Positions 12,541 to 54,702 of a stretch of DNA of 64,000 nt are shown here, in pieces; position 1 is the stretch's first letter; the number at the start of each line of letters is the position of its first letter. Both the position numbers and the translations under genes were made by a program. This stretch comes from an uncultured Poribacteria bacterium (GTDB lineage: Bacteria; Poribacteria; WGA-4E; WGA-3G), in contig OX638351.1 in the NCBI GenBank assembly GCA_951813565.1, forward strand, positions 2,880,001-2,944,000, in the 5' to 3' direction. The notes under the pieces are model-generated. The model was not told the origin of the DNA. It worked only from the letters and a program-made list of their open reading frames with translations, and searched no databases.

Positions 12541-13317
12541 TTATCTTGAAGCTTTAAGATCCCCCCAAGTCAGAGCTAGCTTATTGGCAGGCTTTACGTC
12601 AGCCCACCCTTTTGCATCCATGTTTTGGTTGATTTCGTCTTCACTTAGCGCTCGATTATAAACACCAAGTTCGTCAACGAGACCTATGAAGTAATAGGCA
12701 GCATTAGCAGGGAATAGCCTTGTTCCAAGTAGCCAAGCTGTAGGGGTCGGACCTGAGTAAACTTCTGCTTTGAGTTCCCCCTTTAAAGCTCCATCGACAT
12801 AAAGAAGATATTGGTCATCAAAAACAGCAGTGATATAATACCAATCACCGCGTGTTTCAAGAATCCCCCCAGGAGAATTCAAATCTCCGCCGCCAGGTGG
12901 CCATTGACCAACATTCATCCCGCCATCATTCCTCATATAAATATAGTTCTTAGTCGATCCACTCTTCTCACCGCCCTGCCATATGAAACTGGCAGACTGA
13001 TCCTTATTATTAATAAACATCGAAACTGTAAGTGGTGGATCTATATTCAAACTTTCGGGAACTCCGAAATCCACATAATCATCACCATCAAACTCCAGTG
13101 CCTGACCGACTTTACCTTCAACTACTTTGGGGTCGCCCTTCATGGTTCCATCATTTTTCCCAAATACGTCTTTAACAGTATCGCCATCTACATCAGCCTT
13201 ATCAAAAGTCCAGTAGCTAACCAAACCTTTAGTAATCACTTGAGCTTTCGCCATATTTGTACACATAAAAATAGTTGCAATAACAGCAAAAACTATGACC
13301 AACATTTTGTTAAACAT
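12541..13317 (-). CDS. Secreted LamG/concanavalin A-like protein with a C-terminal TWG tail
   Basis: 'GLVSYWTFD', 'DELGVYNRALS'; ends 'VKPANKLALTWGDLKASR'. Confidence 0.9.
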   Translation of the reverse strand: MFNKMLVIVFAVIATIFMCTNMAKAQVITKGLVSYWTFDKADVDGDTVKDVFGKNDGTMKGDPKVVEGKVGQALEFDGDDYVDFGVPESLNIDPPLTVSMFINNKDQSASFIWQGGEKSGSTKNYIYMRNDGGMNVGQWPPGGGDLNSPGGILETRGDWYYITAVFDDQYLLYVDGALKGELKAEVYSGPTPTAWLLGTRLFPANAAYYFIGLVDELGVYNRALSEDEINQNMDAKGWADVKPANKLALTWGDLKASR

Positions 13318-13511
13318 TTTGGACTCCTTTTTTTCCAGTATTGGTCGTTAGGACCGGGCAAAACCGGTTCCACAAATTTCATTAGAACCCTACATCTTTT
13401 TCCGAACTCACGTTAATATATATATGTATGTATGTCAAGTTAATTTTGAAAAAAGCAGAATTTGCGAAAATTCTGTAAAGAATTGTATAATTTGAGGAAC
13501 TCACTTTTTTA

Positions 13512-15464
13512 TTAAAATTTTCCGAAGACCCGTACAAATATTTCCATGAAATTTTGATCGTTCACATCTCCAATTGCTCGCTGGTCTATGTATCGCGCCC
13601 CGATATGTAGAAAAAGCTGCTTCCGATAGGCGAAAAAACTCTTTTCCATTTCCGCTAATAGCGCTTGACGAACAAAATCGTTATCATCCTTAAGTAGATC
13701 GTTGAACAAAAGAATCTGTCCACCACCTGTGATCTTGATCGTTTTTGTGAACTGGTACACGACCTTGAGGATAAGTGCAGGAGTCATATCACGGACATGT
13801 GCTTGTTCAATTTGGCGCAATCGGAGTTCACGCGAGACGTCCCTATCATCAATCCTCGCGTGTAGATTGAGGTATTCGAGTCGGTCTTCCGCCATCCGAA
13901 ATCCGTTACGAATGGTATATTTGAACATTGGGCTGATTTCCAGCGATTTGGAGGGTCGTAGCCGGTAAAGGGTTTTGAAAATGCCGACTTCGTAGTGTTC
14001 ATTATTACCGTCAAAATCAATATCGTATTGCAGCTTGGCACGAGCTGTGGTGACCATGCGGTCTATACCGTTATATTCCCATGTGATTTTGGCGGTGTTA
14101 ATCAGATCGTTCTGCATTAGCAGAGGGTCTTTGCGGCGTTTTTCGACTTCTGCCCCACCATCAACATAGAAAAACAGCAGGTCTCCTTCCGGCACCATCT
14201 CTTGGATTTCCGGTTGTGACCGATAGATTCTTTCATCTTGTCTGCCCAAAAATCCTGCATAATACCATGTTTCGTCAGGAATATTGTCCTTCACTAATTT
14301 GAGTTCATTTTCAAAAATAAGCGAAGATGCGCGTGGCAGTTCTTTTTTATAAACTATGTTAGCGAACGCTTTCCTGGAGGTTGGAATATTGCGGAATTTT
14401 AGGTTTTTCTCGACTTGGAGCCCAAGGTCCAGGTCAATTACGCTTTTTTCTCCGCTCATCGTTTGGTTCATGAAAAGCCGGACGCCTTCCAATCCGACAT
14501 CAAATTCGTAATTCGGATTCTGATCGTTTTCTTCTTCGTCCCGTATACCGTTGTTGTTTCGATCTGTTTCATCAAGGAAATCTTCATCAACATCAAACAG
14601 CAGAATATCGTCCTCGTAGTCGAAGGTGCCGTTGTTATTTTTATCAAGGTCACCAGGAATAATCAGGGATGGCGGGTCAGGAAATGTATTATCGGAGTAT
14701 CTGTCCTGGTCATCGTTATCTCCGACAGAGCGGGAGGCGTCAAATCGTGGACCGACGCGAAACGCCTCCGCTTGAAAGAGCGTATCCCCAACCGTTCGGA
14801 ATGCTTTGAACACGGTTGTCGTGGCATCAAAACGTGAGCCCAAGTTTTTCTGGAGTGCGTTTTTTGGCGTTACTGCTAATTCGGCTTTCAATCCATAATT
14901 GGCAAAATTGGTTTCCATATCGACTGCCCAAACAGGCGTTTCTCGGAAATACCAAGAGAGTCCTAACTGCGATTTACCGAATTTTGTTACTTCGCGTAAG
15001 CCGATGCCCGAACCTTCCGTTTGACCTTCTTGACCGTTCAGGCGATTGAGTGTGCCTGGAACCATTAAGATTGTCCAATCGCTGTGATTAGAACGCACCT
15101 CCCAGCGGACACCGTTTAGATCAATCTGATCGAATGTAAACTTTGTAAACGTTGTCGGCACTTCGCCAAGACTCAGGATATTTTTGACATTACCAGCAGT
15201 TTCCTCAATCACAAGGACGCTATGGAAGCCGCGCCGAAAGAGGCGGTCGAAATCAAAGTTATCTTGCCGGACTCGTTCTTCCTCTGTATCAGCGAGGAAG
15301 TTTCGTCTGTTTGTAAAATCGTATTCGACGCGTCCAGACAGGAACAATTTACCGAATAGACTGTATACATCCTCGGCTTCTGCGTGGAACACAAGAGAAC
15401 AGTTGAACAGTAAAAGGAGAACGCAAGGGATCAGGCACTTTCGGATGCCTGTGTTTCTGTCCAT
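13512..15464 (-). CDS. Putative outer-membrane beta-barrel protein with acidic DxD/NxNG Ca-binding-like loops
   Basis: Signal peptide (AEA); 'DLDKNNNGTFD', 'DRNNNGIRD'; amphipathic strands; terminal Phe. Confidence 0.65.
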   Translation of the reverse strand: MDRNTGIRKCLIPCVLLLLFNCSLVFHAEAEDVYSLFGKLFLSGRVEYDFTNRRNFLADTEEERVRQDNFDFDRLFRRGFHSVLVIEETAGNVKNILSLGEVPTTFTKFTFDQIDLNGVRWEVRSNHSDWTILMVPGTLNRLNGQEGQTEGSGIGLREVTKFGKSQLGLSWYFRETPVWAVDMETNFANYGLKAELAVTPKNALQKNLGSRFDATTTVFKAFRTVGDTLFQAEAFRVGPRFDASRSVGDNDDQDRYSDNTFPDPPSLIIPGDLDKNNNGTFDYEDDILLFDVDEDFLDETDRNNNGIRDEEENDQNPNYEFDVGLEGVRLFMNQTMSGEKSVIDLDLGLQVEKNLKFRNIPTSRKAFANIVYKKELPRASSLIFENELKLVKDNIPDETWYYAGFLGRQDERIYRSQPEIQEMVPEGDLLFFYVDGGAEVEKRRKDPLLMQNDLINTAKITWEYNGIDRMVTTARAKLQYDIDFDGNNEHYEVGIFKTLYRLRPSKSLEISPMFKYTIRNGFRMAEDRLEYLNLHARIDDRDVSRELRLRQIEQAHVRDMTPALILKVVYQFTKTIKITGGGQILLFNDLLKDDNDFVRQALLAEMEKSFFAYRKQLFLHIGARYIDQRAIGDVNDQNFMEIFVRVFGKF

Positions 15465-15670
15465 ATTTAATTTTCGCAGTCATCGGCTATAGGTTTTTAG
15501 TTCGTTAATTGTTGGGTTTCGCTTCGCTCTATCCAACAAAAATCCGAGAAAATCCGCCATTCAGGTAAATGTAAGAGGTGCAATGAATTGCGCGACTACG
15601 AATGCGTGAAATCAGGGTTGAAACCCCTCCCACAAGATGCGGACGGTACGCGGAGTGTGCCTGCTACTTT

Positions 15671-15805
15671 TATAGTGGATTCTACAATTAACCGGGCATT
15701 TGAGCTGTCCGAGGGAACTCCGATTCCCGACTAACAGTGGTTTCGTCGCGATTCGGAGATCGCTCCTACAGAATATATGTGAACTTATTTACATAATTTA
15801 CTATA
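15671..15805. mobile_element. IS630-type MITE with an internal REP doublet
   Basis: Right end reverse-complements to TATAGTAAATTATGTAAATAAGTTCACA, close to the IS630 TIR ending at 37495. Confidence 0.7.
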
Positions 15806-17467: not shown

Positions 17468-18235
17468 TTACTTTTTGGACTTTAGCAAACCCCAAGTGGT
17501 GGTTGCTTTTCCTGATGCCTCAACAGCGGCATAATCTGCTAAGCCTGTATCCATGACATCGTTGACTTGTGCTTCAGTAAGTGCTTTAGTGAAGAACCCC
17601 ACTTCATCAAAGAGTCCTGTTGCCGCTACATTGCCAGGGCGTGCACCTATCCAGATGGGGGATTGACTGGTATCCAGCGTTCCACCACTCGCCTTTTCAA
17701 CTTCCAGTTTTCCATCAATGAACATCTTAACACTTTTGCCATCATAAACTTTCGCGATATGATGCCACTTACCATCTGCCACGATAGTTTTACCCGGCAT
17801 ACGAGTCTCCACGCCCTTGACGTGCCACATGAACACCGGATAGTCAGCATCGTGAATCCATATATCAAGATGACGTACAAGATTGGGCTCGGGCCAAACC
17901 TCTCCATTTCGCCAAACGACATACTGCCATGAGGCTGCTTGTAACTTAATCCAGACGACGAATGTATAAGGATCGGAGTTGAAAACGTCATCATGGTCAA
18001 CACGGACGTAGCTGTCACCTTTGCCAGGGAATTCCAATGCACCACCGAATTTGCCATCACCTACCCACTTTAGAGTGCCTTTGATGTCCCCATCGTGTCC
18101 ACTGACGACATCTTTAACCACTTTTCCACCATTTTCTTCAAACAACCATGCACTTGCTAAATCCAGTTTCGCCGCATGAGCAGAAAAGACTGCCCCGATG
18201 ATAAGTATTGTCAAACACAAAATAGTCGTTTTCAT
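17468..18235 (-). CDS. Secreted LamG domain protein with a TWG tail
   Basis: Signal peptide; 'DGKWHHIA', 'FDEVGFF'; ends 'AVEASGKATTTWGLLKSKK'. Confidence 0.9.
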   Translation of the reverse strand: MKTTILCLTILIIGAVFSAHAAKLDLASAWLFEENGGKVVKDVVSGHDGDIKGTLKWVGDGKFGGALEFPGKGDSYVRVDHDDVFNSDPYTFVVWIKLQAASWQYVVWRNGEVWPEPNLVRHLDIWIHDADYPVFMWHVKGVETRMPGKTIVADGKWHHIAKVYDGKSVKMFIDGKLEVEKASGGTLDTSQSPIWIGARPGNVAATGLFDEVGFFTKALTEAQVNDVMDTGLADYAAVEASGKATTTWGLLKSKK

Positions 18236-19323: not shown

Positions 19324-19776
19324 CTATTCATCACGTCTAATCCAACTGACAACATCTTCCGCTTCACCTGTTCCACCTTCTACGCCATCACTTCCAAATG
19401 AGATAAGGTCGTATCCGTATCGGTCATGCACACCCGGACGGATGTAAATGTATGGGTTGCCCCACGGGTCCTCTGTAATTGGGATTTGAATGTATGGGAC
19501 TAACCAATTTATAGGAAGTGGTGGTTCTTCAGGTTTTTCCCAAAGTGCTTTCAATCCCTGTTTAGTTGAAGGATAATCTCCATTGTCCTTGGCATACCTA
19601 TCAAGGGCGATGCCAAGCGTTTCAATGTCTTCAGCTGCACGTGTTTGTAATGCACGCCCTGCTTGTCCGAGCAACCGTGGTGCCAAAAGAACAGCAGCAA
19701 TCACACCAAGAACAACTACAACAACTAAAACTTGTATCAGTGTTAATCCAGATTGTTTAGAATCAATTTGTTTCAC
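19324..19776 (-). CDS. gspG: Type II secretion major pseudopilin GspG (atypical N-terminus)
   Basis: Prepilin site G|LTLIQ; 'YPSTKQGLKAL', 'DPWGNPYIY', 'SFGSDGVEGG'; GTG start after GGAG. Confidence 0.85.
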   Translation of the reverse strand: MKQIDSKQSGLTLIQVLVVVVVLGVIAAVLLAPRLLGQAGRALQTRAAEDIETLGIALDRYAKDNGDYPSTKQGLKALWEKPEEPPLPINWLVPYIQIPITEDPWGNPYIYIRPGVHDRYGYDLISFGSDGVEGGTGEAEDVVSWIRRDE

Positions 19777-19858
19777 AAATGCGTCTCCGCGCTTTCCAAT
19801 AATGAGAAAACTTTTGAATGTCTGCAAGAGTTTATCATATTTCCTTGATTATGTCAAA

Positions 19859-22075: not shown

Positions 22076-23086
22076 TTACCGGCTTTTCACATTTGCCCAA
22101 GTTGTTGTCAACTTATTTGTATCTGGGGTAACATCGTAAACGCCTTCGGTATCTAAAGCGATGCTAGACACCCCTTTCAATTCCGTCAGAATATCTGTAA
22201 CATTTGTTCCATCAAGGTTTGCCCGTTGAATTTTACCCGTATGTATTATTTTCCCATTCTGCTTTTGTGTATCCCTTTCTACCCAGTACATTTTCTGTGA
22301 ACGGAGGTCTAATGCAATATTATTTGGAAAACTCAACTCTTCTAATAGGGTTTCAGTATTATCGCCATCAAATGATGTCCTTCTAATCTGGTTTAAGGAG
22401 ATGTGGGTCCAATACACCTTGCGGTTGTGTAGGTCAAGCGCAAGCCCGACGTGATGAATTATACTAATACCAAGTTTTTCGTAATTAGAACCGTCAAAGT
22501 TCACACGGGCGATATTATCATTTAAAGAGTCTACAAAATACATCTTACCCTCCTTCACATCAAGTCGGATATTCTCGGCATCAACTCTTGGTCCAAATAC
22601 GGCGCCCTCCACAGGCTTAATTATAATGTCCTCAATATTGGAACCGTCATTATCTGCCCGCGAAATTCCCCATGGTGCTATCCAATTACCCCAATATATT
22701 TTACTTGCATTGGTGTCTATGGCGATGCAGACGGGAGAATGTAGGCGTTTTTTCTGTTCTGCAATCTGTGCTTCGCGATTGAAAATCACTTCAATATTTG
22801 ACCCATCAAGGTTTGCACGGTATATTTTTGAGTGGTCAAAGTTATAGGTAACCCAGTCCATCTTACGGTTGCGTATGTCCAAGGCAATATCTCTCGGCGA
22901 CTCCAATTCTGTTAAGATGTCTTCCACATTGGACCCATCGAGGTTTGCCCGTCTGATTTTATCTGATTCTGTCCAATATATCTTGGCACTTCCTTGCCCG
23001 TAACTTAGACCATGGACAACAGTAGTCAGCAAAATCGTAACCAAAATAAATACAATCCATTTTTGCGCTAAAACCCGATTTTTCAT
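22076..23086 (-). CDS. Secreted YWTD (LDL-receptor class B) propeller protein, paralog 1
   Basis: 'KIYWT...RANLDGSN' repeats; tail 'KLTTTWANVKSR'. Confidence 0.9.
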   Translation of the reverse strand: MKNRVLAQKWIVFILVTILLTTVVHGLSYGQGSAKIYWTESDKIRRANLDGSNVEDILTELESPRDIALDIRNRKMDWVTYNFDHSKIYRANLDGSNIEVIFNREAQIAEQKKRLHSPVCIAIDTNASKIYWGNWIAPWGISRADNDGSNIEDIIIKPVEGAVFGPRVDAENIRLDVKEGKMYFVDSLNDNIARVNFDGSNYEKLGISIIHHVGLALDLHNRKVYWTHISLNQIRRTSFDGDNTETLLEELSFPNNIALDLRSQKMYWVERDTQKQNGKIIHTGKIQRANLDGTNVTDILTELKGVSSIALDTEGVYDVTPDTNKLTTTWANVKSR

Positions 23087-23158
23087 GTCAGTACTTCTGC
23101 TTTGTAAACACTACTGGCTTTTCATATTTGCCCAAGTCGTTGTCAACTTATCTGTATC
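22877..23158. repeat. 282-bp direct repeat, copy 1
   Basis: One mismatch versus 23897-24178; period 1020 bp. Confidence 0.9.
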
Positions 23159-24106
23159 AGGAGTAACATCGTAAACTCCCTCGGTGTCCAAAGCGATACC
23201 GCGAACAGTGTTTAATCCTGAAAAAATAGTTGTAACATTTGTTCCATCAAGGTTTGCACGCTGGATTTTACTCTTAATTGTTTTCCAATTCGTTTCTACC
23301 CAGTACATTTTCTGTGAACGGAGGTCTAATGCAATATCGGTTGGTCTGTTTAATTCGGTCAAAAGGGTTTCAACATTGTTACCATTAAGAAAGGACCGTT
23401 CAATTCTGTCAAGGAAGGGATCAGTCCAATATACGTGGCGATTGCGTAGGTCAAGTGCGAGTCCAAGTGGAGCAGGTGTAGTACCGAGTTCTTCATAATT
23501 AGATCCGTCAAGGTTTGCGCGCCCGATATTATCATTAAACGAATCTGCCCAATACATTTTCCCTGATTTCAGGTCAAGTTCAATGCTCTCAGCATCAACT
23601 ATTCGTCCAAATATAGCACCAGCACCATCCAAAGGTTTGATTTTTATATCTTCAATATTGGATCCGTCATTATCTGCCCGCGAAATTCCCCATAGCCCAC
23701 GCCAATTACCCCAATATATTTTACTTGCCTTGGTGTCTATAGCGATGCAGCCGGGAGAATGTAAATGTTTATTTTGTTTTACATTCTGTTCTTCCCGATT
23801 GAAAATTACTTCCATATTTGATCCATCAAGGTTTGCACGGGATATTTTGGGGGTGTCAGAGAAAGTTTTTACCCAATACATCTTTCGGTTATGCAGGTCC
23901 AAGGCAATATCTCTCGGCGACTCCAATTCTGTTAAGATGTCTTCCACATTGGACCCATCGAGGTTTGCCCGCCTGATTTTATCTGATTCTGTCCAATATA
24001 TCTTGGCACTTCCTTGCCCGTAACTTAGACCATGGACAACAGTAGTCAGCAAAATCGTAACCAAAATAAATACAATCCATTTTTGCGCTAAAACCCGATT
24101 TTTCAT
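23111..24106 (-). CDS. Secreted YWTD propeller protein, paralog 2
   Basis: N-terminal ~70 aa identical to paralog 1; tail 'KLTTTWANMKSQ'. Confidence 0.9.
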   Translation of the reverse strand: MKNRVLAQKWIVFILVTILLTTVVHGLSYGQGSAKIYWTESDKIRRANLDGSNVEDILTELESPRDIALDLHNRKMYWVKTFSDTPKISRANLDGSNMEVIFNREEQNVKQNKHLHSPGCIAIDTKASKIYWGNWRGLWGISRADNDGSNIEDIKIKPLDGAGAIFGRIVDAESIELDLKSGKMYWADSFNDNIGRANLDGSNYEELGTTPAPLGLALDLRNRHVYWTDPFLDRIERSFLNGNNVETLLTELNRPTDIALDLRSQKMYWVETNWKTIKSKIQRANLDGTNVTTIFSGLNTVRGIALDTEGVYDVTPDTDKLTTTWANMKSQ

Positions 24107-24178
24107 GTCAGTACTTCTGCTTTGTAAACACTACTGGCTTTTCATATTTGCCCAAGTCGTTGTCAACTTATCTGTATC
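23897..24178. repeat. 282-bp direct repeat, copy 2
   Basis: Matches 22877-23158. Confidence 0.9.
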
Positions 24179-25222
24179 GGAAGAAACATCGTAAAATCCG
24201 TTAGGGTCCAAAGCGATATCCGATGGATAATCCAATCCCGTAAGAATATCTCGGACATTGGAACCATCAAGGTTTGCACGTTGCATCTTGCCTATATCTG
24301 TATCCAAATCTATATCTATCCAGTACATCTTACGTGCTCGTATATCTAAGACAATGTCGGATGGAAAACGTAATCCTGTGACGAGTTCTTCAACCTTATT
24401 ACCATTAAGAAATGCGCGCTGAATTTTCCCTGTAACAGTGTTTGTCCAGTACATCTGACGCGCGCTCATGTCCAATGCTAAACCGTATGCTGTACGCATA
24501 TCCGTAACAAGGTCCTCAGCGTCAGAACCGTCAAAGTTTGCACGTTGGATTTTACGACCGTATGCGTCAGTCCAGTAAATTTTACCTGCTTCTAAATCCA
24601 ATTCAATACTCAGGGGCTGAAGCCACTGTTTAAACTTAATTTCAAAAGGCAAAATCCGTTCTTTAATAATAATATCTTCAATATCAGATCCGTCAAAGTT
24701 CGCACGCTGAAATATATCTAAGTGTCCGTTTCCCCAATATATTTTGTTTGCATCGGAATCTATGGCAATGCAGTTTGGGTCAATTAACTGTTCGTGCGTT
24801 AGATTAATCGGGGCTCCATCTTTTGGGGTCGCCGTGCCCTCACATTTCCAATTGCGGCATCGAATACTCATCCCTCCTCCTCCAGGTGGTAGATCATATC
24901 CTGTGACGATGTTTTCGACATTCGAACCATCAAGGTTCGAACGTTGGATTTTAGCTGTGTAGTTTTCCGACCAATATATCTTACGGTTGCGTAAATCCAA
25001 AGCAAAATCTACTATCGGTGGTATATCCGTTAAAACGTTCTCAGCGGAGGACCCGTTAAGGTTAGCACGTCTAATTTTACCCTTTTTGGTGTCTGAATCA
25101 AATTCTGTCCAGTATATCTTTCCTCTTCCCTGTCCGTAACTGGGACTTTGGACAGTAGATATGAGCAAAAACACTACCAAAATAAATGCAATTCGCTTTA
25201 GTGTTGAGATCAGATTATTCAT
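24131..25222 (-). CDS. Secreted YWTD propeller protein, paralog 3
   Basis: YWTD repeats; start moved to MNNLIS after GGAG; tail shared with paralog 2. Confidence 0.88.
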   Translation of the reverse strand: MNNLISTLKRIAFILVVFLLISTVQSPSYGQGRGKIYWTEFDSDTKKGKIRRANLNGSSAENVLTDIPPIVDFALDLRNRKIYWSENYTAKIQRSNLDGSNVENIVTGYDLPPGGGGMSIRCRNWKCEGTATPKDGAPINLTHEQLIDPNCIAIDSDANKIYWGNGHLDIFQRANFDGSDIEDIIIKERILPFEIKFKQWLQPLSIELDLEAGKIYWTDAYGRKIQRANFDGSDAEDLVTDMRTAYGLALDMSARQMYWTNTVTGKIQRAFLNGNKVEELVTGLRFPSDIVLDIRARKMYWIDIDLDTDIGKMQRANLDGSNVRDILTGLDYPSDIALDPNGFYDVSSDTDKLTTTWANMKSQ

Positions 25223-25268: not shown

Positions 25269-27551
25269 TCATTTCCTGATAAGCATTTTGCGTGTGGCAG
25301 AGAAGTCGCCAGCATTGATAGTATAGAGATAAATGCCACTACTGACCGCCTCGCCCTCATCATTGTGTCCATCCCAGTGCACTGCTTGCGCTTGTGAGGA
25401 ATAATCCCCGGCTGACATGATTCCCGGTGAAAGAGATCGCACCAACTTGCCGGTTGGGGTATAGATACGAATTGTTACATCACTCTTGTCCGCAAGTTTG
25501 AATGGAATCCATGTTTCTGGGTTGAATGGGTTAGGGAAGTTCTGTAGCAGTTGGTTTTTCTTTATCTGTCCGAGTGTGACATATTTTTTGCCTTTAGGTT
25601 CAACAGGATAGGGTAGAAAAGAAAGCAGTTCTTTTATATCCCAAACCATGTATTGACCACTCCTATCAGGCGATAACAGAACAGAACCATCTTTACTGAG
25701 AACAGATATTCCTGGAAAAGGTGTATGTTTGACAGGCCTGTTTCTTTGCCAGTCCCAGATTTGGAAGTTATTGTCTTGATTTGCAAAGAGATAACGACCA
25801 TCTGGGCTAAATTGCACCGGGTCATCTCCATCAAACGCAGTTAAATGTTGTAACCCATTTAACAGAACTTTCCAAATGTGGATTTCTCTACCTCCGTAAG
25901 CTGCTAACACTATTGAACCATCTCCTCCTATAGAAAAGGCAGGTGATGAATAAATTCTTGGAACTTGTGATACATATTGAAGGATAAATGTCTCGTGTTC
26001 GCGTTTCCAAAGTGCAATCCAGTATTTATATGTATTGTTTTTCCCAGTGCGACAGGAAGCTGCCAAATATTTATCATTTTCACTGAAGGCAATATCTTGA
26101 AAGTCGGGTGAATCATTTTCAATTTTTGTGTTGACTTTCTGGATTTTATCGGGATTATTTGTGTCTAAAAACAACAGATCATTCCAATCATTCACCACTG
26201 CGAGCCATTTTCCAGAGGGGCTAAAGGCGATTTCCAGAGCACCTGAAACGTAATGCGGAAATTGAATTTTCACTCTACCGCTCTGAATGTCGCGTAGCTC
26301 AACCCATGGATCCTTGCCAACAGCGAATGTTTTATTATCTGGAGAGATCGCTAAACCATCAAATGCATAGCCTTCGGAGGGAACAAGTGCTTGCATTTGC
26401 TGTGAAGTTACATCCCATGTCTTAATGAATGACCATGATACTGTAACTAAGGATTTTCCATCAGGACTCAATGCAACATCATAAATGAACCGGTTTCTGA
26501 CATAGTCTGCCCACACATCGTGCTCTCGATTATTAGCGATATCCCACACTACATCACCATCCCAATATTCTAAGATTGCTGTTTTCTCATTTGGAGAAAG
26601 TATAATTGATTCTAAAAAACGAAAATCAGTGCTGAAAGTATCTGTTTTTTCTCCAGACATAACATCCCAGACGCGCACTTTGTCATCCCAACCAGTATAG
26701 GGAGTAGCCCCAGACCGATGCAATCCAGCTGTACTTGTGCCAACATACAGGCGTTGACTATCTGGACTGAATACCACATTTGAAATCCTACCAATACCAC
26801 TTGTCCGATGCCATAACTTTTGGCGTGTTTCAACATCCCATAGATGTACTAAGGTTGAATCGTATTCAAATGCTGCTACCATCTTACCATTAGGACTGAG
26901 AGCCATATCTTCAATCCTGTCAAGATTCTGTTCAGCAAAATTTCCTTGTAAGATCTGCGTTTCGACATTCCACAACTCAAGATTATGCTGTGAGGCAACG
27001 ATAAGATGTTCGTCATCAGGAGTAAAAACCATAGAACGAAGAGATGGAAAATTCTCACGTGGCAGTTTTCCAACAGATTCTCCAGTTTTCCAATTCCAAA
27101 AATGTATCCCACTTGGTAAATAGGTCGCTAATATAGGCTGTGTAGGACTAAATGCTGCGTCATTATCATCAATAATTGATGCTATCTTCCATTGCGAAAT
27201 AAGTTGTTGGTGATTGACATCCCAGATATTCACGATGGTCATTTTCGGATCAAAGGAGTGATTCAGAATAGCTAAATGATCAGTATTTGGACTGATTACT
27301 ACATCACTGTAAACTGTTCTTTCACCAAATTCTTCCATTACCTCATTTGTAGTGAAATCAACAATCTGAATGTGTGTAGGAACAACGCGTAAGATCGTTT
27401 CATTGTTCAGAAGCGCATGTTTTTCAGGCAGCGGCTGCCCAATCGTAGCAATAGGTTCAATCGCAAATGCAATATGTGGTATGCAGAAAATGCAAATTAG
27501 TGCGATATGAATCTTCGGGCTTTGTCTAAAATGGGTGGTAAGTGATTTCAT
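25269..27551 (-). CDS. Secreted WD40 propeller protein with a C-terminal FlgD-Ig/T9SS-type-A-like domain
   Basis: 'FSPD...WD' repeats; 'LLQNFPNPFNPETWIPF...WDG...SSGIYLY...TRKMLIRK'. Confidence 0.88.
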   Translation of the reverse strand: MKSLTTHFRQSPKIHIALICIFCIPHIAFAIEPIATIGQPLPEKHALLNNETILRVVPTHIQIVDFTTNEVMEEFGERTVYSDVVISPNTDHLAILNHSFDPKMTIVNIWDVNHQQLISQWKIASIIDDNDAAFSPTQPILATYLPSGIHFWNWKTGESVGKLPRENFPSLRSMVFTPDDEHLIVASQHNLELWNVETQILQGNFAEQNLDRIEDMALSPNGKMVAAFEYDSTLVHLWDVETRQKLWHRTSGIGRISNVVFSPDSQRLYVGTSTAGLHRSGATPYTGWDDKVRVWDVMSGEKTDTFSTDFRFLESIILSPNEKTAILEYWDGDVVWDIANNREHDVWADYVRNRFIYDVALSPDGKSLVTVSWSFIKTWDVTSQQMQALVPSEGYAFDGLAISPDNKTFAVGKDPWVELRDIQSGRVKIQFPHYVSGALEIAFSPSGKWLAVVNDWNDLLFLDTNNPDKIQKVNTKIENDSPDFQDIAFSENDKYLAASCRTGKNNTYKYWIALWKREHETFILQYVSQVPRIYSSPAFSIGGDGSIVLAAYGGREIHIWKVLLNGLQHLTAFDGDDPVQFSPDGRYLFANQDNNFQIWDWQRNRPVKHTPFPGISVLSKDGSVLLSPDRSGQYMVWDIKELLSFLPYPVEPKGKKYVTLGQIKKNQLLQNFPNPFNPETWIPFKLADKSDVTIRIYTPTGKLVRSLSPGIMSAGDYSSQAQAVHWDGHNDEGEAVSSGIYLYTINAGDFSATRKMLIRK

Positions 27552-31004: not shown

Positions 31005-31110
31005 TAGCTTTGTCCCTCCTTAGCAACGAAGAACTGGGATGTGTCAAAAATTGTGTTGATTTCGTAGGGCAAATTTTCAGTTTGTGGATTTCAGCGCCAA
31101 TTACCAGTTC

Positions 31111-33447
31111 TCATTTCTGAATTAGCATTTTGCGTGTGGCAGAGAAATCCCTGGCATTGATGGTATAGAGATAAACACCACTGCTCACAGGTTCGCCTTT
31201 GTCATTGCGTCCATCCCAATGCACTGCTTGCGATTGTGAGGAATAATCCCCCGCAGACAAGATTCCAGGGGATAGTGAGCGGACTAACTTACCTGTTGGG
31301 GTATAGATGCGGATTGTGACATGGCTTTCATCCACAAGTTGGAACGGAATCCAAGTTTCTGGATTGAATGGGTTGGGGAAGTTTTGTCGCAACTGATTCC
31401 GTTTGATTTGTCCGAGTGTAACAAACTGCTTGCCTTTAGGTTCAACAGGATAAGGTAAGGAAGAAAATAAGTTTTTGGCATCCCAGATAAGGTATCGACC
31501 CATTTCGTCCTTGGATACTAAAATTGATCCATCTTGACTAATACCACGATAATCTGGAATTGACGGATATTTTATCGGTCTACTTGTTTGCCAATCCCAT
31601 ATCTGAAGTTCGCGATATCGATCAGTAAAGAGATACCTATTATCAGGACTGAAATGTATCGGCTCGGCTGCAGCCATCAGTGTATTTACAAGATGAGCAT
31701 TCTGAGGTAGAATTTTCCATATTCGGGTTTCTGAATTTTTTGATGATGCTGCCAACACCGTTGAGCCATCATCTGGAGAGGCAAAGGCAAGTGAGGAATA
31801 TGAAGAACCGCTGTGTTCTGGAGTCTCCCATTTGTATTGAAATTCGAAATTGTCCCCTTTGCGTTTCCATAATAGTATCCAGTACTGATAGTTATTACGT
31901 GCCCCTGTCCGGGCAGAAGCAGCCATAAATTCATCATTTTCACTGAAAGCAACCTGATAGAAATCATTAGGCCAATTAAGTTGGAAATTTATGCGGACTC
32001 TGTGAATTTCCTTTGGATTACCCACGTCAAAAAGAAACAGATATCCCCATTCATTCACTCCTGCAAGCCATTTTCCAGAGGAACTGAAGGAAGCATGATC
32101 AAGAAGACCAAAGTGATCTCGGTATTGCGCTTCAACGTTACCGGTTTGAATATCTGCCACTTCAACCCAAGGATATTTGCTATAAGCAATTCGTTTGCTA
32201 TCTGGAGAAATGGCAACACCTTTTTCAAAAAAATAAAATCCAGAAATCAAAAAACGTATATGTTGTGAGGGAATATCCCAGACTTTAATAAAATTGGAAT
32301 CAACAGTGACCATTGTTTGACCGTCAGGACTTAGCTTAGGTACCCCACCCACAAAATCAGTGAATACTTTCAACTGCTGTCTGGTTTCGGTTTTCCAGAG
32401 TTCAATAACGCCTCCCCACCAAAAACTCCCGTCATATTGAAGAAGCATGGTTTTTCCGTCTGGTGATAATATCATCTGTTGCAATGCCATAAAATCGTTT
32501 CCGAATGTGTCAATTTGTTGACCTGATTTAACATCCCATATATATACATTTTTATCCGCAGCATATAGGTGTTGACTGTTTGCACTAAATACCACATCTG
32601 AAATTCTGGTTTCATCAATCGGTTCTCTCCATAACAGTTGTCTTGTCGCGATATCCCACATATACACAAGGTCCGATTTGCTTTCAAATGAAGCGAGGTA
32701 TATTCCATCTGGACTGATAGCCAATCCATCAACCCAATTACCTGTATGTCCCTCAAAATGTCCTACCAATTGACGTGCTTCAACATCCCATAACTCTATA
32801 TCTGGCCGTTTGGATGCGACGATGAGGTGCTTTCCGTCTGGAGTAAACACCATATCATCATTCGTTTCAGGTCTTGAACAATACTTAGCAATACCGTTCC
32901 CGTTTAATTCCTTAACCACATAACAAGGTTCGCGCTTGCGTCGATTGCCTGCCATTGTTCCAACAAGTTCTCCGGTTTGCCAATTCCATAAATGAATCTC
33001 ATTATTATAGGTGGTGGCAAACAAGAGATGAGTGGGGCTAAATGCTGCTATCTCCGTTCTGTGTCCTATTTCCCATTCGGATATTTGTTCTTGTGTATTG
33101 ACATCCCAAATGTTTACGGTAGTTGATTTTGAAGCAGAAGAGTAGTCCAGGGTGGCTAAATGTGTAGCATTTGGACTAAACACAATATCGCTACCTCTGG
33201 TGCGGTTACCGAACTCGTCAATTATTTTTCCCGTTTCACGGTCAACAATCTGGAAATTTGGACCTAAATATGGAACACGCAAAATGGTCTGATCAGTGAG
33301 AAAGGCGTGTTTTTCTGGAGGTCGCTGCCCAAGCGTGGCGATAGGTTCAATCGCTTGCACCAAACAGGGAACACAAGCAATGCAAATCAGAGCAACATAG
33401 AAATGAAGGTTTTGTCTGAAATGAGCAATAAGTGTTTTCATGTTCAT
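31111..33447 (-). CDS. Secreted WD40 + FlgD-Ig/T9SS-like domain protein
   Basis: Paralog of 25269-27551. Confidence 0.88.
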   Translation of the reverse strand: MNMKTLIAHFRQNLHFYVALICIACVPCLVQAIEPIATLGQRPPEKHAFLTDQTILRVPYLGPNFQIVDRETGKIIDEFGNRTRGSDIVFSPNATHLATLDYSSASKSTTVNIWDVNTQEQISEWEIGHRTEIAAFSPTHLLFATTYNNEIHLWNWQTGELVGTMAGNRRKREPCYVVKELNGNGIAKYCSRPETNDDMVFTPDGKHLIVASKRPDIELWDVEARQLVGHFEGHTGNWVDGLAISPDGIYLASFESKSDLVYMWDIATRQLLWREPIDETRISDVVFSANSQHLYAADKNVYIWDVKSGQQIDTFGNDFMALQQMILSPDGKTMLLQYDGSFWWGGVIELWKTETRQQLKVFTDFVGGVPKLSPDGQTMVTVDSNFIKVWDIPSQHIRFLISGFYFFEKGVAISPDSKRIAYSKYPWVEVADIQTGNVEAQYRDHFGLLDHASFSSSGKWLAGVNEWGYLFLFDVGNPKEIHRVRINFQLNWPNDFYQVAFSENDEFMAASARTGARNNYQYWILLWKRKGDNFEFQYKWETPEHSGSSYSSLAFASPDDGSTVLAASSKNSETRIWKILPQNAHLVNTLMAAAEPIHFSPDNRYLFTDRYRELQIWDWQTSRPIKYPSIPDYRGISQDGSILVSKDEMGRYLIWDAKNLFSSLPYPVEPKGKQFVTLGQIKRNQLRQNFPNPFNPETWIPFQLVDESHVTIRIYTPTGKLVRSLSPGILSAGDYSSQSQAVHWDGRNDKGEPVSSGVYLYTINARDFSATRKMLIQK

Positions 33448-33552
33448 GTGTATCTCCAAATTTGTAGATTAACATCTAACACAATCCAATTTCATCTGCT
33501 GAGAAGCTTGGCTGAAAAGAGTTCTTTGTTGTTACATGTATTGATAACAGGC

Positions 33553-33766: not shown

Positions 33767-36056
33767 TCATTTCCGAATTAGCATTTTGCGTGTAGCGGAG
33801 AAGTCACCTGTATTGATGGTATAGAGATAAACACCACTGCTCACCGGTTCGCCTTTATCATTGCGTCCATCCCAAGGCACTGCTTGCGATTGTGAGGAAT
33901 AATCCCCCGCAGACAAGATTCCAGGGGATAGTGAGCGGACTAACTTACCTGTTGGGGTATAGATGCGAATTGTGACATGGCGCTCATCTGCGAGTCTGAA
34001 CGGAATCCAAGTTTCTGGATTGAATGGGTTAGGAAAGTTTTGTAGCAGCTGGTTACGCTTTATTTGTCCGAGTGTAACGAACTTCTTACCTTTAGGTTCA
34101 ACAGCGGTAGGTTGAGGTTGTGGAGGTAAGAGTTTTGTTGCATCCCATATCTGAATTTGTCCCGAATCATCGTAAGATGCCAGAACAGCGCCATTCTGAC
34201 TGAGGTCAAAATATTCGGATATCGGCTGGTGGTCAATTTGTGTATTTGTCTGCCAGTTCCAGATTTGAAGGATGCGATCTTGTTCACCTAATAGATACCA
34301 ACCATCTGGGCTAAAGTGTACTGGAAAACCTACTTCTAAAGTTGTCGCAAGTTGTGGATTATCTGGTAGTAGTTCCCAAATTTGGATTTCTTCTCGTCTG
34401 GGAACTGCCAAAACTATTGAACCATTTGCGTCAGATACAAACGCTGCTCTTGAATATGAAAAACTATCAAGTTTAGGTGCCTGCCATGTATATTGAAAGT
34501 GGAAAATATCTCCCTCGCGTTTCCATAATAATATCCAATATTGCCAACCTTGATTGTTGTACGTGCGTGTTGAAGCTGCCAAATATTCGTCATTTTCACT
34601 GAAGGTAAAATATGAGCTGATGTCAATATCAGGTGCATCGCCCGTAGAAACTATCTGATTCATTTCTGGATTTTCAACATTGAAGAGTTGGATATTGCTA
34701 TGCCTCCTTACTGCCACCCATTTACCAGATGAACTGAATGTAATGTCAGTAATTCCTTGGTGGTACTTAAATTGCGTAACAACTTTCCCTGTCTGTAGAT
34801 CGCGCACCTCAATCCAAGGGTCCCGACCAACCGCCAGTTTTTGCCCGTCAGGAGAGATGGAAAATTCTCGGAATAGGCTATTTTCAACAGAAGTGAATAG
34901 ACGCATCTGTTGTGAAGAGATGTCCCATGCCTTTATTGAGTTTCGAGATACAGAGACTAAGGACCTACCGTCAGGTGTTAAAGCATTATCCCAGCCACTG
35001 ATATAATCAGTCCACACTTTCAACTGCTTCCTTTTTTCAACATCCCATAATACAACAGCATCTTGATAATGCAGGATCGCTGTTTTCCCGTTTGGCGATA
35101 GCGTCATTGACTTTAACGACCGAAACTCGCTACCGAATGTATCAATCTGTTGTCCTGATTTGACATCCCAGACGCGCACCTGATCGTCCCATCCTCGCCA
35201 ACCACCCTTGCCATTTCCTTGTAACGCACTTGTCCGGTTCGCAACATATAAATGTCTACTGTTCAGAACTAAATGCTATAGCAACAACATGCCCCGTGCC
35301 ACCTCCTTTGTGCCATAACATCTGTTGCGTATTAAAATCCCATGCATAAAATGAACCTGAATTTAACGTGTACATTGCAATGGTCGTGTCATCAGGACTG
35401 ATGACTAATGCTTCAGCACTGCTAACGTTTTCCCCTACAAACTGTGCCTCTAAGCTGCGTGTTTCAATGTTCCATAACTCAAGCTTAGAATTGTTTGCAG
35501 CAACAATGAGATGACGACCGTCTTTACTAAAAACCATTGCCCGATCTGATGGCAAATCCTCACGTATCAACTTTCCAATAGTTTCCCCATTTTGCCAGTT
35601 CCATAGATGTATTTCACGAGCGATAGCAGTCGCAAATATAGGTTGTGTAGGACTAAACGCTGTTTCATCATCAGATATGCGAGCTGCTATCTCCCATCGG
35701 GCTATAAGTTGCCTGTTATTGACATCCCAGATGTTTACGGTGGTCATCAATGAATTTATCGTGCGATTCAAAATTGCTAAATGTTCCGCAGTCGGACTAA
35801 ATACTACACTGCTATAACGCGTCCGCTCACCGAATTCGTCTGTGACCGCACCTGTTTTGACATTTATGACCTGAATATGTGTTGGTACAACGCGTACAAT
35901 CGTTTCATTGTTAAGAAACGCGTGCTGTTCTGGAATCGGTTGTCCAATTGTGCCAATAGGTTCAATACCAAATGTAACAGGCGGAATCCCTGCAATGCTA
36001 ATAAGGATAAGAAAAGCCAGCAAGTTTTGTTTAAAAAGGGCGGTAAATGTTTTCAT
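33767..36056 (-). pseudogene. Frameshifted WD40 + FlgD-Ig paralog
   Basis: One extra base at 35262-35263; removing it gives FSSDSRHLYVANRT...GWDDQVRVWD, colinear with the 760-aa paralog. Confidence 0.85.
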
Positions 36057-36585
36057 GATGTCTACAAATTACTTTGATGTCTGATTTCGTATCGGATGAA
36101 TCTAACTGTCTATTTGAAGAATTCAGCGTTTAAGCTCTCCCCACATAGTTGTAAGTTTCCCCACTGGCTCAACAGAAAGTGCAGAAACATCTGCCCAAGT
36201 CAAACCATAAGCGGCATTAGGTATTTCAACGAGGCGTCGCATTTTAGAAGTGTGTCGAGAAATAGTATATAGGACGCTTGACCGAGTTTCATGGTAATAG
36301 GAAAAAAATGCGATATAATTATCATCAGGTGACCACGCTACACGATACGTTCGATATGAACCATTTGGATTTAACCTACGATGATTGGTGCTATTCGCCT
36401 TGGCAACGTAAACACCCCCATCACCTGCTGCTGAACCGTATGCAATATGCTTACCATCGTGTGAAAAGCTAAAGAAAGCACCGGGTGTGCCGAGGAATGC
36501 GGCACCTTTGTGAAATAGATTATACTCTTTGGGCCTTCTTGGTTTTGGAATATCAACCTCCCAATATTTTGTCCGACTCGTATTA

Positions 36586-37493
36586 TAGTAAATCCCGTAA
36601 TTACTTATACACTTTTATAATATCATCAATAGAGGTCTCAGCGTTGTATTGACGTATCCGCTTGATGTTGGCGAAATCCTTCTCAATCGGGTTCAACTCC
36701 GGTGAATACGGCGGTAAAAACAACAAACTCGCACCGCAATCCCGGATCAATGCCGCCGTCTGTGAACCTTTGTGGAAAGACGCATTATCCATAATCACAA
36801 CATGGCTATCGTCAAGCAATGGACACAACATTTCCGAAAGCCAACTGTTGAAGGCGACCGCGTCGCAACTGCCCTCGAAAAGCACAGGTGCTGTGAAACA
36901 TCCATCAAGCCTTGCAGCAATCAGCGTCGTGGTGGTATACCGATGGCTTGGCACTTTATCTTCAACACGGACACCTTTCGGGGCATAAGCATACCGACGG
37001 AAAGTGGTTTCAGTGAAACCACTTTCGTCAAGATAAACCGGTGTTTTGCCATGCGCCTGTGTCTCTTGTTGAAGTGCCGAAAGATACTCTTGGCGTTTTA
37101 TCGGACACTGTTCTTTGTAGGTCGTGGTCTTTTTTTTCGCGTGATATTGAGTTTTGAGAAGGCATAAAAGATGCCATTTGTTGAAACACCGAAGTGTTTA
37201 GCACGTTCGGCGAGTGTGGAATCTGGGAAATCGGCAACATGTTGCTGAAGTGCGTCATAATCAATATCTCGGGGCCCTTTGGGTCCCGGTTTTTCACAGG
37301 CGAAGGGGTCTTCTGCTTCCAACCAGTTATAGATCGTTCTTCTTGAGACACGAAAAGTGCGTTCTGCGGCGGCTTTACTGCCACCATTATTGATGAAATC
37401 AAGCACGCGTTTGCGTAAATCTGTTGAATATGCCATAATTATAAAGGCTAGCATAAATCCCAGAAAATGTAAACTTATTTTCAATATCTACTA
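36586..37493 (-). mobile_element. IS630-family insertion sequence (908 bp)
   Basis: TA duplication at 36584-36585 and 37494-37495; imperfect TIRs TAGTA...TACA; transposase inside. Confidence 0.93.
36601..37436 (-). CDS. IS630 transposase (HTH + DDE) joined by a -1 shift at an A8 run
   Basis: 'MAYSTDLRKRV'; A8 at 37130-37137; the -1 frame gives 'YLDESGF', 'MDNASFH', 'YSPELNPIE'. Confidence 0.9.
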
Positions 37494-37970
37494 TAAAATC
37501 CATATAAAAAATCGAACGTGAATCTGGTGCCCATACGAGCCGTCGTAGACGTCGTTGATGGGATGTTAATTGGCGGACTTCTCCACTTTGAACGGAGATA
37601 AGAAAGATTTCAGAAATCCCAGGGCTAAGGCCGAGATACGCAATCCACTTTCCATCAGGAGACCATGCGAAATCCCAATATAGTTGAACATCAAGTCTTA
37701 TTTCTTTGATACGCTTACCAGTTCCTGTTTCACATATCTCAAGTACCTGTCCCGGTCGCCACACGGCTAAATATCGACCATCATGTGATGGTCGGGCGGC
37801 AGGTGCGTCAAACAACTTGGTGGGTTTGGTTCCGTTAGTCTTGATTGCATAGACACCGTCGCCTCCGATAGTATAGATTATATAGTCTTTTGCCCAAGAT
37901 AAATTGGCAATGAGTAAACAACCGATTACAGACCAAAATATAACTGTTAGAAGGATTCTTTTTGAAGATT

Positions 37971-38852
37971 TCATTTTTTAAGTTGTCCCCATGTAGTTGT
38001 GAGTTTGACTTGTGCATTAACTGCAAGCGGGATAGTAGTCTTTGCGCCATTTTTACCCATCAGATGATACCCATTTTCCGATGAATCTAAGAACATCCGC
38101 TCCCTACTCGGTTCATCAAAATGCCATAACGCGACAGTCTTTCCATCATTTCTAAACTTTTCTTCAGGTAAAAATCTCTTTTTGTCAATGTCGTAACGAG
38201 CATCAGTTGAAATGCGTACCTCATCAATATATCCTGTAAAGGAATGCCAAAAGAAGCCACCTAAATTGGGTGGTTGAATTTGCTTCCCAAAACCACCGAG
38301 CGTAAAGTCCTTTGGACGCCAGAATTTTGATAAATCATCTCCAATAATTGTTCCTTGTCCCATCGTTTTGACAACTTCATTAACGATGGTCGACGTCCGT
38401 TTTCCTTTTGCCTGAAAAGCGATGTGATGCCACTGATTCAAACTGAGGGTGATCGGAAAAAACGGTGTTACTGCATCCCCACCCCATCCGGCAACATGTG
38501 CATCGGTTATTAGGAGCAGGTCCCCTTTCTTCCAATCAATACGATTCTTTACGAACTGATATCCGGCATAATCATCGCTTACAACGCGCATTCGCACTTG
38601 TTGACTGAGGATGATTGCGGTAATATTGTCGTCAGGGGGCTTTGTCGGATAAACCCACGCTTCAACGGTGAATTCATCTGTGTCTGCAGGTAAAAGTATA
38701 CCAAATGTTTCAAAGTCCAATTCAGCGTAATCATCTACACCGTCAAGAACTAAATAGTTGCCACCTGCCGGCGAAGGTGGTGCTGCTTTGGCACGGAACG
38801 GAATCATCAATGTAAGAAATAGTACACATGTAAATATACGTAGATATATCAT
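37971..38852 (-). CDS. Secreted LamG domain protein with a TWG tail
   Basis: 'FTVEAWV', 'WHHIA', 'IDEVRIS'; ends 'AVNAQVKLTTTWGQLKK'. Confidence 0.88.
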   Translation of the reverse strand: MIYLRIFTCVLFLTLMIPFRAKAAPPSPAGGNYLVLDGVDDYAELDFETFGILLPADTDEFTVEAWVYPTKPPDDNITAIILSQQVRMRVVSDDYAGYQFVKNRIDWKKGDLLLITDAHVAGWGGDAVTPFFPITLSLNQWHHIAFQAKGKRTSTIVNEVVKTMGQGTIIGDDLSKFWRPKDFTLGGFGKQIQPPNLGGFFWHSFTGYIDEVRISTDARYDIDKKRFLPEEKFRNDGKTVALWHFDEPSRERMFLDSSENGYHLMGKNGAKTTIPLAVNAQVKLTTTWGQLKK

Positions 38853-53287: not shown

Positions 53288-53290
53288 ATA

Positions 53291-53478: not shown

Positions 53479-53482
53479 ATAA

Positions 53483-53708
53483 TAACGTGAATTTGATAAT
53501 TAGACCCAATGTAGATGTCCGTTGGGTAGAGCGAGCGAAACCCAACAATTCAACCGTCTTGGAAGTAATTTAAAGTTGGGTTTCACTCACTTTTCTGTTA
53601 TTTCGGCATCAAATGGAGAAAAAATCTCTCTTTTATGTCCGATTTTTTGTTTATTCCGTTCTACCCAACGGACAGTGGATATTGAATTTTATTATCAAAC
53701 TCACGTTA
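53483..53708. mobile_element. MITE with an internal REP pair
   Basis: TIRs TAACGTGAATTTGATAAT / ATTATCAAACTCACGTTA. Confidence 0.75.
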
Positions 53709-53733
53709 TAATAGCCATTTCAAGGAGATAAAA

Positions 53734-54702
53734 GTGAAACATATTCATACAGTGTTTGGGATAACGTTACTATTCAGTTTATTCCTGCTTGCTATAAACG
53801 CTTGGGGAGAACCATATATTTCTTTCTATTCTAACCGCACAGGGAATAGGGACATCTACATCATTGATACGAATGGTGAGAATCTCCGCAACCTCACAAA
53901 TCACCCCGCAAGCGATTGTTGTGCAACGTGGGCGCCAGATGGCCGATCTTTCGCTTTTATGTCGAGACGGGATGGAAAAGGTAATATCTATATCATGAAA
54001 GTTGGTGAAACTGAAGCGCGTCGATTGACAAACCATCCGGAGCAAGATTCGGCTCCTGCTTGGTCACCTGATGGGAAATGGATTGCTTTTCAATCCAATA
54101 GAACAGGGAAAAGTCAAATCTACAAAATAGATATCAATGGTAAGAATCTACAGCGGTTGACAAACCAGGGAAATAATTACACCCCGGCATGGTCTCCAGA
54201 CGGGAAATTAATTGCATTCTATTCTGATCAGAATGAATGGGGTGATGTCTATGTGATGGATTCAGACGGAAAAGGTGTCAGACGCATTAAAAACGAACAT
54301 GGTGGTGGGTCTCGGTCTCCTGCTTGGTCTCCTGATGGGAAACAAATTGCCTTTGATATTTCCAGACAAGGAAACGGTATCTTCATTATGGATGTAGATG
54401 GAGGAAATTCCCGCCGCATGTCACCGCCTTTGAATTGGAGCTACAATCCTGCGTGGTCTCCTGATGATAAGTGGATTGCCTACGAGGCAGAAATTGAAAA
54501 TCCTTGGGGAAACCCCAATGTGGATAAAAATATATATATTGTCTCTGTCAAGAGTGGCAAGCGGCTACAAATCACACACCATCCTGGGCAAAATGGTGAG
54601 CCTGCATGGGTCCCCGAAGGTTTTTTCTCCGTTTCCCCTACTGCAAACACTAAAACGACACTTTGGGGTAGATTAAAGCAAACTGAACCTGTGGCGCAGT
54701 AA
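53734..54702 (+). CDS. Secreted TolB-like (PD40) propeller protein with a TWG-like tail
   Basis: 'PAWSPDGK' repeats; 'SVSPTANTKTTLWGRLK'. Confidence 0.88.
   Translation: MKHIHTVFGITLLFSLFLLAINAWGEPYISFYSNRTGNRDIYIIDTNGENLRNLTNHPASDCCATWAPDGRSFAFMSRRDGKGNIYIMKVGETEARRLTNHPEQDSAPAWSPDGKWIAFQSNRTGKSQIYKIDINGKNLQRLTNQGNNYTPAWSPDGKLIAFYSDQNEWGDVYVMDSDGKGVRRIKNEHGGGSRSPAWSPDGKQIAFDISRQGNGIFIMDVDGGNSRRMSPPLNWSYNPAWSPDDKWIAYEAEIENPWGNPNVDKNIYIVSVKSGKRLQITHHPGQNGEPAWVPEGFFSVSPTANTKTTLWGRLKQTEPVAQ

Follow-up and report, generated by a model that had tools for sequence, protein, structure and literature searches.

Why should exported proteins of unrelated shapes, encoded close together, carry the same short peptide at or near the C-terminus? 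The stretch considered here, called the window, is a whole 64,000-nucleotide piece (contig OX638351.1, positions 2,880,001 to 2,944,000, assembly GCA_951813565.1) of the single-contig 5.43-Mb genome of an uncultured Poribacteria bacterium. An initial annotation, made from the letters alone, had described 11 secreted proteins in it that share a tail of the form VxPxxKLTTTWGxLK, and had proposed that the tail is a portable signal read by a secretion machine or a scaffold. This proposal is supported by the present analysis, which narrows the machine to one resembling a type IX secretion system (T9SS), with SprA, PorV and PorU and with no detectable GldM. The tail is likely a new miniature export or surface-anchoring label on ~165 exported proteins of unrelated shapes, and on balance we lean towards the view that it is a peptide-sized sorting signal of a motor-less T9SS.

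A terminal tail on exported proteins

A hidden Markov model (HMM) of the tail, grown from the 11 window tails with position ignored, was run against 123,786 six-frame segments and gave 168 matches at ≥15 bits; reversed sequences gave none at ≥15 bits and three at ≥12 bits, and the matches are not chance. Nearly all (161/168) end within 12 amino acids (aa) of the stop, four are placed 90-95 aa before it, with a type A T9SS C-terminal domain (CTD) directly following, and three carry 16-39 extra residues after the motif, in line with the claim that the tail is usable alone or together with a T9SS-like domain. The consensus of the 168 tails, with percent conservation, is L46-[APS]-V82-[EDS]-P66-x-G45-K88-L65-[TA]-T70-T62-W98-G74-x-[LI]86-K97; the Val-to-Trp spacing is 10 residues in 144 of 165 tails, and the last 20 aa of the carriers have a median net charge of +2. 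Degenerate terminal tails that fall below the 12-bit threshold (G000:C1:475203-476036, 1410775-1411824, 3657225-3658661 and 5111807-5112829) make the 168 carriers a lower bound.

A crude gene set of 4248 genes contains 160 of the carriers, with eight tail matches outside it. Signal peptides were called in this set by our own hydrophobicity rule and not by SignalP, giving a signal-peptide-like start for 148/160 carriers and 1219/4088 other genes; counting HMM matches in this way had been suggested as a check of the initial annotation, and both the terminal position and the co-occurrence with signal peptides came out as predicted. None of the 148 has a further transmembrane (TM) helix, and the 12 carriers failing the rule include wrong starts and fragments; one carrier lacking a signal peptide (G000:C1:3348581-3349411) comes from a gene that a stop divides in two, being its second half, which may explain one of the 12. 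With a plain regular expression, signal-peptide genes show 139 terminal versus 12 internal matches, and the remaining genes 12 versus 12.

The bodies of the carriers form 38 sequence clusters, 73 of the 168 belonging to a single LamG cluster and 31 to a single TolB-like one, and those matched by Pfam among 28 scanned representatives are mostly carbohydrate-binding modules, with ankyrin, FG-GAP and an LTD/Ig giant in addition. A lipobox is found in 3/148 tail carriers compared to 204/1219 other signal-peptide genes, and carriers have homologues without the tail, among them lipoproteins (cluster 4) and CTD proteins (clusters 2 and 7). Among LamG-like genes 70 of 76 carry the tail; four of the six without it are larger, one has no signal peptide, and one is a short paralogue, seemingly frameshifted. 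The lipobox rarity, the tail-less lipoprotein and CTD homologues and the LamG pattern amount to a complementary distribution, which we count in favour of a sorting signal. The same is true of the split in size, as tail-only carriers are small (median 266 aa, 2/145 above 500 aa) and CTD proteins large (median 836 aa, with 1 of the 27 over 300 aa falling below 450 aa).

The tail is undescribed in the sources searched. None of six window tails matched NCBIfam (E ≤ 0.1) or Pfam (E ≤ 0.01), and a sequence search of the PDB returned nothing meaningful for the tail profile or for the profile of a shorter cousin introduced below. No description was found in the literature, in which subscription papers were mostly outside reach and supplements unopened, and an ESM Atlas search with one tail gave three unnamed matches below 0.9. 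The motif is thus terminal, accompanied by signal peptides, placed on unrelated folds and unmatched in Pfam, NCBIfam and the PDB, contrary to each of the findings that the initial annotation had named as speaking against it.

Distribution and the CTD slot

All 151 Poribacteria genomes searched are matched by the tail profile, with 26-347 first-look candidates per genome, of which at most 54 per genome were scored; 143 of the best 150 of 514 matches are terminal. A shorter cousin, xPVExx[TS]WGx[IV]KxxYR, was located at 127 or more loci with a pattern scan, and 126 of the 127 matches listed end at the stop. At positions outside the search pattern, the matches listed have Thr or Ser before the Trp in 91% and P-V-E in 55, 50 and 52%; as P-V-E was not part of the pattern, its presence is counted for the sorting signal. 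The two profiles align with a probability of 93% (E 3.5e-7), although the pattern itself accounts for part of this likeness. Among 50 genomes drawn from the listed loci, the strict cousin pattern occurs in 11-78 copies in 42 and in 0-2 copies in eight, and the reversed control gave none. Cousin-bearing lineages include Eisenbacteria, Krumholzibacteria and Latescibacteria, with multiple copies in Krumholzibacteria/Eisenbacteria-type genomes, and the tail is conserved across several phyla.

Most low-count cousin genomes encode one protein of ~135 aa composed of a signal peptide, one Fn3 sandwich and then TWGSIKAMFR, with members in Rhodothermus marinus, R. bifroesti, Rhodocaloribacter litoris and Cyclonatronum proteinivorum; that of the cultured R. 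marinus (WP_012842694.1, Rhom172_0158) is single copy. Among 597 homologues, the 120 closest share 54-99% overall identity with the query, yet their final 10 residues do not differ; distant homologues vary slightly there. In the structural model the Fn3 domain has a pLDDT of ~90 and the tail 58-66, with a helix at residues 128-133; the cousin tail is predicted to be a 6-residue helix on a flexible linker. Pfam finds four families in this protein family, each matching 1/90 members. The gene is mostly found beside a maf-like gene, named by eye (16/32 loci), and no T9SS gene was recognised beside it at the 32 loci.

The Fn3-tail protein also bears on the slot that the tail occupies. Among 76 longer homologues, 67 have the end of the Fn3-like domain 60-115 aa before the C-terminus, and PF18962 is listed for 62; in the source genome the tail comes directly after this same domain in the carriers of 1563 and 1416 aa (E 1.7e-6 and 3.9e-6). 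As the same domain is followed by a CTD in the homologues and by the tail in the source genome, either CTD or tail occupies one slot.

Association with the type IX secretion system

The source genome encodes a SprA-like protein of 2167 aa (E 9e-46; 155.7 bits against a curated cut-off of 200), three PorU-like C25 proteins that keep GHG and the Cys (371-419.9 against a cut-off of 420), 16 PorV-family matches in ~14 genes, among them a PorV orthologue (UFBoot 97), 32 CTD-profile matches, and one GldK-like FGE-sulfatase protein under the cut-off. A SprA-like protein is present in 101/101 Poribacteria, each time under the curated cut-off, and SprA in 48/50 cousin-tail genomes; the matches in the two negatives are chance-like (a 15-aa frame and a match not at the stop). 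GldM was not found in the source genome or in any of 80 genomes (30 Poribacteria and the 50 with cousin tails), and the positive control worked. Of the PorLM/GldLM motor and PorKN ring of a canonical T9SS, the source genome thus gave at most the GldK-like match, no search having been made for GldL and GldN. Kamke et al. 2014, in the portion consulted, saw CTD domains in Poribacteria and no Por structural genes (PMC3909097).

For the full-length Fn3-tail protein, 301 Bacteroidota-side genomes (the phylum of G191) were tabulated, with up to 13 candidates scored in each; the outcome matches that of an independent pattern scan. The protein occurs in 0/64 SprA-negative, 1/73 SprA-positive GldM-positive and 106/164 SprA-positive GldM-negative genomes, although these groups follow lineages and the table is therefore no statistical test. 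It fits the absence of SprA from Chlorobiota given by Liu et al. 2025, who, in the part of the paper seen, describe SprA as specific to the Fibrobacteres-Chlorobi-Bacteroidetes group (PMC12611786). The only genome of the 301 with both GldM and the Fn3-tail protein is G354 (C28). Twenty loose-pattern matches outside the family were followed up, of which 19 proved not to be terminal tails of a real frame and one was the G354 family member; two loose-pattern matches in GldM-positive genomes (G286 and G394) end at the stop right after the Lys, and the reversed-pattern control gave 17 matches in the 301 genomes. PorV-family matches number 3-19 in 16 genomes with the Fn3-tail protein versus 2-9 in 16 without.

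Candidates for a reader of the tail were also considered. A tail-specific PorV clade was suggested by FastTree and received no support from IQ-TREE (backbone 12-46), the 134 sequences covering part of most genomes' paralogues. The GWxTD protein was rejected, being absent in 3/3 Poribacteria and present in 2/2 tail-negative genomes. A complex prediction of the Fn3-tail protein with two barrels of genome G356, the PorV orthologue and an operon-encoded PorV-like one, gave no answer (score 0.00), three chains lying outside the calibration of the tool. In the source genome PorV-like genes are not clearly enriched beside tail genes; four of them have a CTD gene at most two genes away, which recalls the pairing of type B CTDs with PorP/SprF, and the PorV orthologue (G000:C1:4556641-4557840) shares its strand with a TolB-like gene that carries the tail, ~120 bp downstream of which it lies.

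A secreted protein of ~1000 aa with a divergent CTD is encoded in single copy (G000:C1:849339-853573; L353:1358-5571; relatives L358-L377), with a PorV-family barrel of its own encoded directly behind it and, in several other lineages, a GWxTD gene after that. It has no Pfam match, its Atlas clusters are unnamed, and it is possibly an extra module of the motor-less T9SS.

Relation to known sorting signals

In the PEP-CTERM/exosortase, LPxTG/sortase and GlyGly-CTERM/rhombosortase systems, a C-terminal motif is followed by a TM helix and a basic cluster. The tail resembles these as a short conserved C-terminal motif, followed by basic residues, on many unrelated exported proteins, and NCBI names some carriers PEP-CTERM proteins. 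It differs in having no TM helix, as the initial annotation had maintained: no 15-residue stretch within the last 40 aa exceeds a Kyte-Doolittle mean of 1.39 in the 161 terminal carriers. The accompanying claim that the tail is not PEP-CTERM-like also holds for 120 homologues of one carrier, all close relatives: 114 carry the tail, and none shows [VI]PEP in its last 35 aa.

The type A CTD of the T9SS (TIGR04183/PF18962) is likewise a portable C-terminal element without a TM helix on proteins with a Sec signal peptide. The tail stands behind the same Fn3-like domain and is found together with SprA, PorV and PorU; its linker, judged by eye, may resemble the cleavage motif. Unlike the CTD, a seven-stranded beta-sandwich of ~100 aa, the tail measures ~10-18 residues, is predicted to be a short helix, has no match to CTD models and is found almost only where GldM is undetected. 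By analogy the tail would work like a CTD, but its length, fold and lack of motifs B, D and E place it outside the CTD family.

That T9SS signals can shrink is seen from the short type A CTDs of Prevotella intermedia, for which the consulted part of the report gives a PT/GI cleavage consensus with a conserved aliphatic residue at +2 (PMC11969387). These CTDs are, however, three-stranded sheets of 43-55 aa that keep motifs B, D and E, none of which the tail has. Set beside this consensus by eye, with a small residue looked for at +1 and an aliphatic one at +2, the linkers of the tail (L-[APS]-V-[EDS]) and of the cousin ([ST]-P-V-E) may show a likeness, which for the tail is counted towards a sorting signal. 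Precedent for several signal classes per cell, each with a shuttle barrel of its own, comes from the type B and C CTDs and their PorP/SprF shuttles in the accounts seen in part (PMC12618676, PMC10202324), and tail-bearing genomes often have many PorV-family paralogues; the type B and C signals nevertheless span 100-235 aa, and no shuttle is genetically linked to tail genes.

Proposed mechanism and alternatives

The tail's position, its carriers, its slot and its co-occurrence with SprA are observed, whereas recognition, translocation and cleavage are modelled here on the workings of CTDs, as far as the sources consulted describe them (PMC12618676, PMC10202324, PMC11969387). A carrier would first be exported by Sec through its N-terminal signal peptide; the short WGx[LI]K helix would then be recognised in place of a 45-100-residue beta-sheet CTD, at the SprA-like pore or at one of the ~14 PorV-family barrels; the passenger, in nearly every case a small lectin or propeller of one domain, would cross the outer membrane, and cleavage at the x|[APS]V linker by a PorU-like sortase may follow, after which the protein would be released or surface-attached. 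Large cargo would keep the full CTD, and in tandems of tail and CTD the tail would supply only a linker. The loss of the Trp in the three WD40 tandems fits such a role; the Trp is also replaced in their relatives and is kept in the FG-GAP tandem.

A bolder version, which we hold tentatively and think doubtful as a whole, is that a motor-less T9SS is widespread (Poribacteria, Krumholzibacteria, Eisenbacteria, Latescibacteria, Ignavibacteria and Rhodothermales) and reads, in place of a folded domain, a linear peptide of ~10 residues, the Fn3-TWGSIKAMFR protein being an undescribed core subunit whose peptide was co-opted to tag up to hundreds of surface lectins.

Several points weigh against a sorting signal of this kind. 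No receptor for the tail was found and no PorV paralogue tracks it; PorV-like genes stand beside CTD genes in 4/14 cases (background 2.4%) and beside tail genes in 3/14 (12%). Both tail and CTD are present in four proteins, which would be redundant if each were an export signal, and one of the four keeps its Trp. Other CTD proteins of the source genome have no xVE linker, and Pro, which takes the +1 place in 26%, is missing from the PorU-site residues given in the portion of PMC11969387 seen. Known T9SS signals, as far as these reports were seen, are folded beta-sheets of at least 43 aa (PMC11969387, PMC12618676). As the profiles follow lineages, few independent events are represented, and 58 SprA-positive motor-less genomes lack the Fn3-tail protein. 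The scores of SprA in all 101 Poribacteria and of the three PorU-like proteins lie under curated cut-offs, the signal peptides are called by our own rule, and the absence of the motor is judged from GldM.

The best surviving alternative, which we consider rather unlikely, is that the tail is a docking peptide by which the protein is clipped to a partner associated with the T9SS, either one of its components or a surface scaffold exported by a CTD, in the manner of dockerin and cohesin. The Fn3-tail protein could then be the original ligand, as an accessory subunit or placeholder, whose peptide Poribacteria re-used for ~160 lectin modules. The invariant last 10 residues in its 120 closest homologues suggest a tight protein-binding site, the predicted short helix on a flexible linker would suit one, tail and CTD occur in tandem, and the carriers are mostly non-catalytic carbohydrate-binding modules. 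A scaffold candidate is also at hand in the ~1000-aa CTD-like protein, present with its own PorV-like barrel in the source genome and several other tail-bearing lineages, but that barrel has paralogues in tail-less genomes. Moreover, tail-only proteins have no other recognisable outer-membrane export signal, so docked carriers would still need a route out, and the swap of CTD and tail behind one Fn3 domain is better fitted by a signal.

It is very unlikely that the tail is an amphipathic basic helix that binds membrane or lipopolysaccharide, or serves periplasmic retention, with no dedicated protein reader. The Trp, Leu/Ile and Lys do fall on a short helix, the net charge of the last 20 aa is positive and the tail replaces a lipid anchor in some homologues, yet the identical 10-mer, the fixed V-to-W spacing and the restriction to SprA-bearing genomes would be left unexplained.

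That the tail addresses a type II secretion system (T2SS) or another machine, its link to the T9SS being a coincidence of lineage, is more improbable again. The profiles are confounded by lineage, and three secretin genes are present in the source genome along with the GspG gene of the window; however, two of five tested genomes with the Fn3-tail protein (G356 and G316) have no secretin match, and it is the CTD slot that the tail occupies.

It is hardly credible, finally, that the tail is left over from paralogue expansion, or forms an integral strand of the folds, and has no part in sorting, for although carriers are concentrated in one LamG and one TolB-like cluster and 77/160 tail genes adjoin another, this reading is largely refuted by the diversity of folds, the 38 clusters spanning lectins, propellers, ankyrin, FG-GAP and Fn3, while the tail lies outside the confident part of both predicted models and is conserved across several phyla.

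Tail-bearing genes of the window

All 11 tails were located where the initial annotation had placed them, and all 11 proteins have a signal-peptide-like N-terminus when judged by eye with the right start taken; in the two broken genes this start sits in the upstream piece. Domain calls with Pfam and NCBIfam confirmed the three LamG, three YWTD/LDL-receptor-B and two TolB-like proteins that had been claimed. The secreted LamG proteins are encoded on the minus strand at 12541..13317 (tail ~12541-12603; its 90% cluster is named LamG protein of Ca. Poribacteria), 17468..18235 (tail ~17468-17530) and 37971..38852 (tail ~37971-38027). Secreted YWTD propellers lie on the same strand at 22076..23086 (LDL-receptor-B type, tail ~22076-22138), 23111..24106 (a tandem paralogue, tail ~23111-23173) and 24131..25222 (tail ~24131-24193, with the start inferred at 25222). 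A secreted TolB-like (PD40) propeller with a divergent tail (~54625-54702) is on the plus strand at 53734..54702. The second TolB-like gene (36123..37974, minus strand; tail ~36123-36179), described as disrupted by an insertion sequence, is indeed split by an IS630-family element at ~36580..37497 (no strand assigned), which has 11 blastn matches in the genome.

The three WD40 genes, all on the minus strand, encode the tail variant directly before the FlgD_ig/Por_Secre_tail domain, as had been claimed. At 25269..27551 a W-to-L variant (~25557-25610) precedes a type A CTD at 25269-25556, and at 31111..33459 the variant (~31399-31452) precedes a CTD at 31111-31398. An AlphaFold model was made of the latter protein, and no confident packing of tail and CTD was obtained from a shallow alignment (31 rows, 77% identity). 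The third gene (33767..36056; variant ~34055-34108 before the CTD), called frameshifted, changes frame near 35265.

Other genes of the window can be noted. Two secreted proteins of 655 and 1123 aa are encoded among the tail genes (13512-15479 and 27648-31019, both minus); neither has a Pfam match and both end in Phe like outer-membrane barrels. A T2SS pseudopilin GspG gene stands alone at 19324-19848 (minus), the three secretin genes, tandem and for proteins of ~1000 aa, lying elsewhere in the genome. A 1443-aa BlaR1/M56-LRR-ExbD fusion (5475-10227, minus) stands behind a short gene resembling, by eye, a BlaI-type repressor, a 1410-aa multi-propeller protein with a PorZ-N-like match is encoded at 44318-48550 (plus), and a bacterial alpha-2-macroglobulin gene (59040-64000, plus) runs off the window.

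Implications

T9SS secretion is described, in the sources consulted in part, as needing the GldLM motor, and the signals described are folded domains. A peptide-sized signal in SprA systems without detectable GldM would revise both of these requirements, and, if the reading is true, the tail would be the shortest T9SS signal among the described ones compared and a candidate tag for protein display. The single-copy carrier of Rhodothermus marinus makes the reading testable without culturing Poribacteria. If true, it would also answer the question left by Kamke et al. 2014, as far as that paper was seen (PMC3909097), and would make it likely that, in a dominant sponge symbiont, ~160 lectin-like and eukaryote-like proteins per genome are located at the surface.

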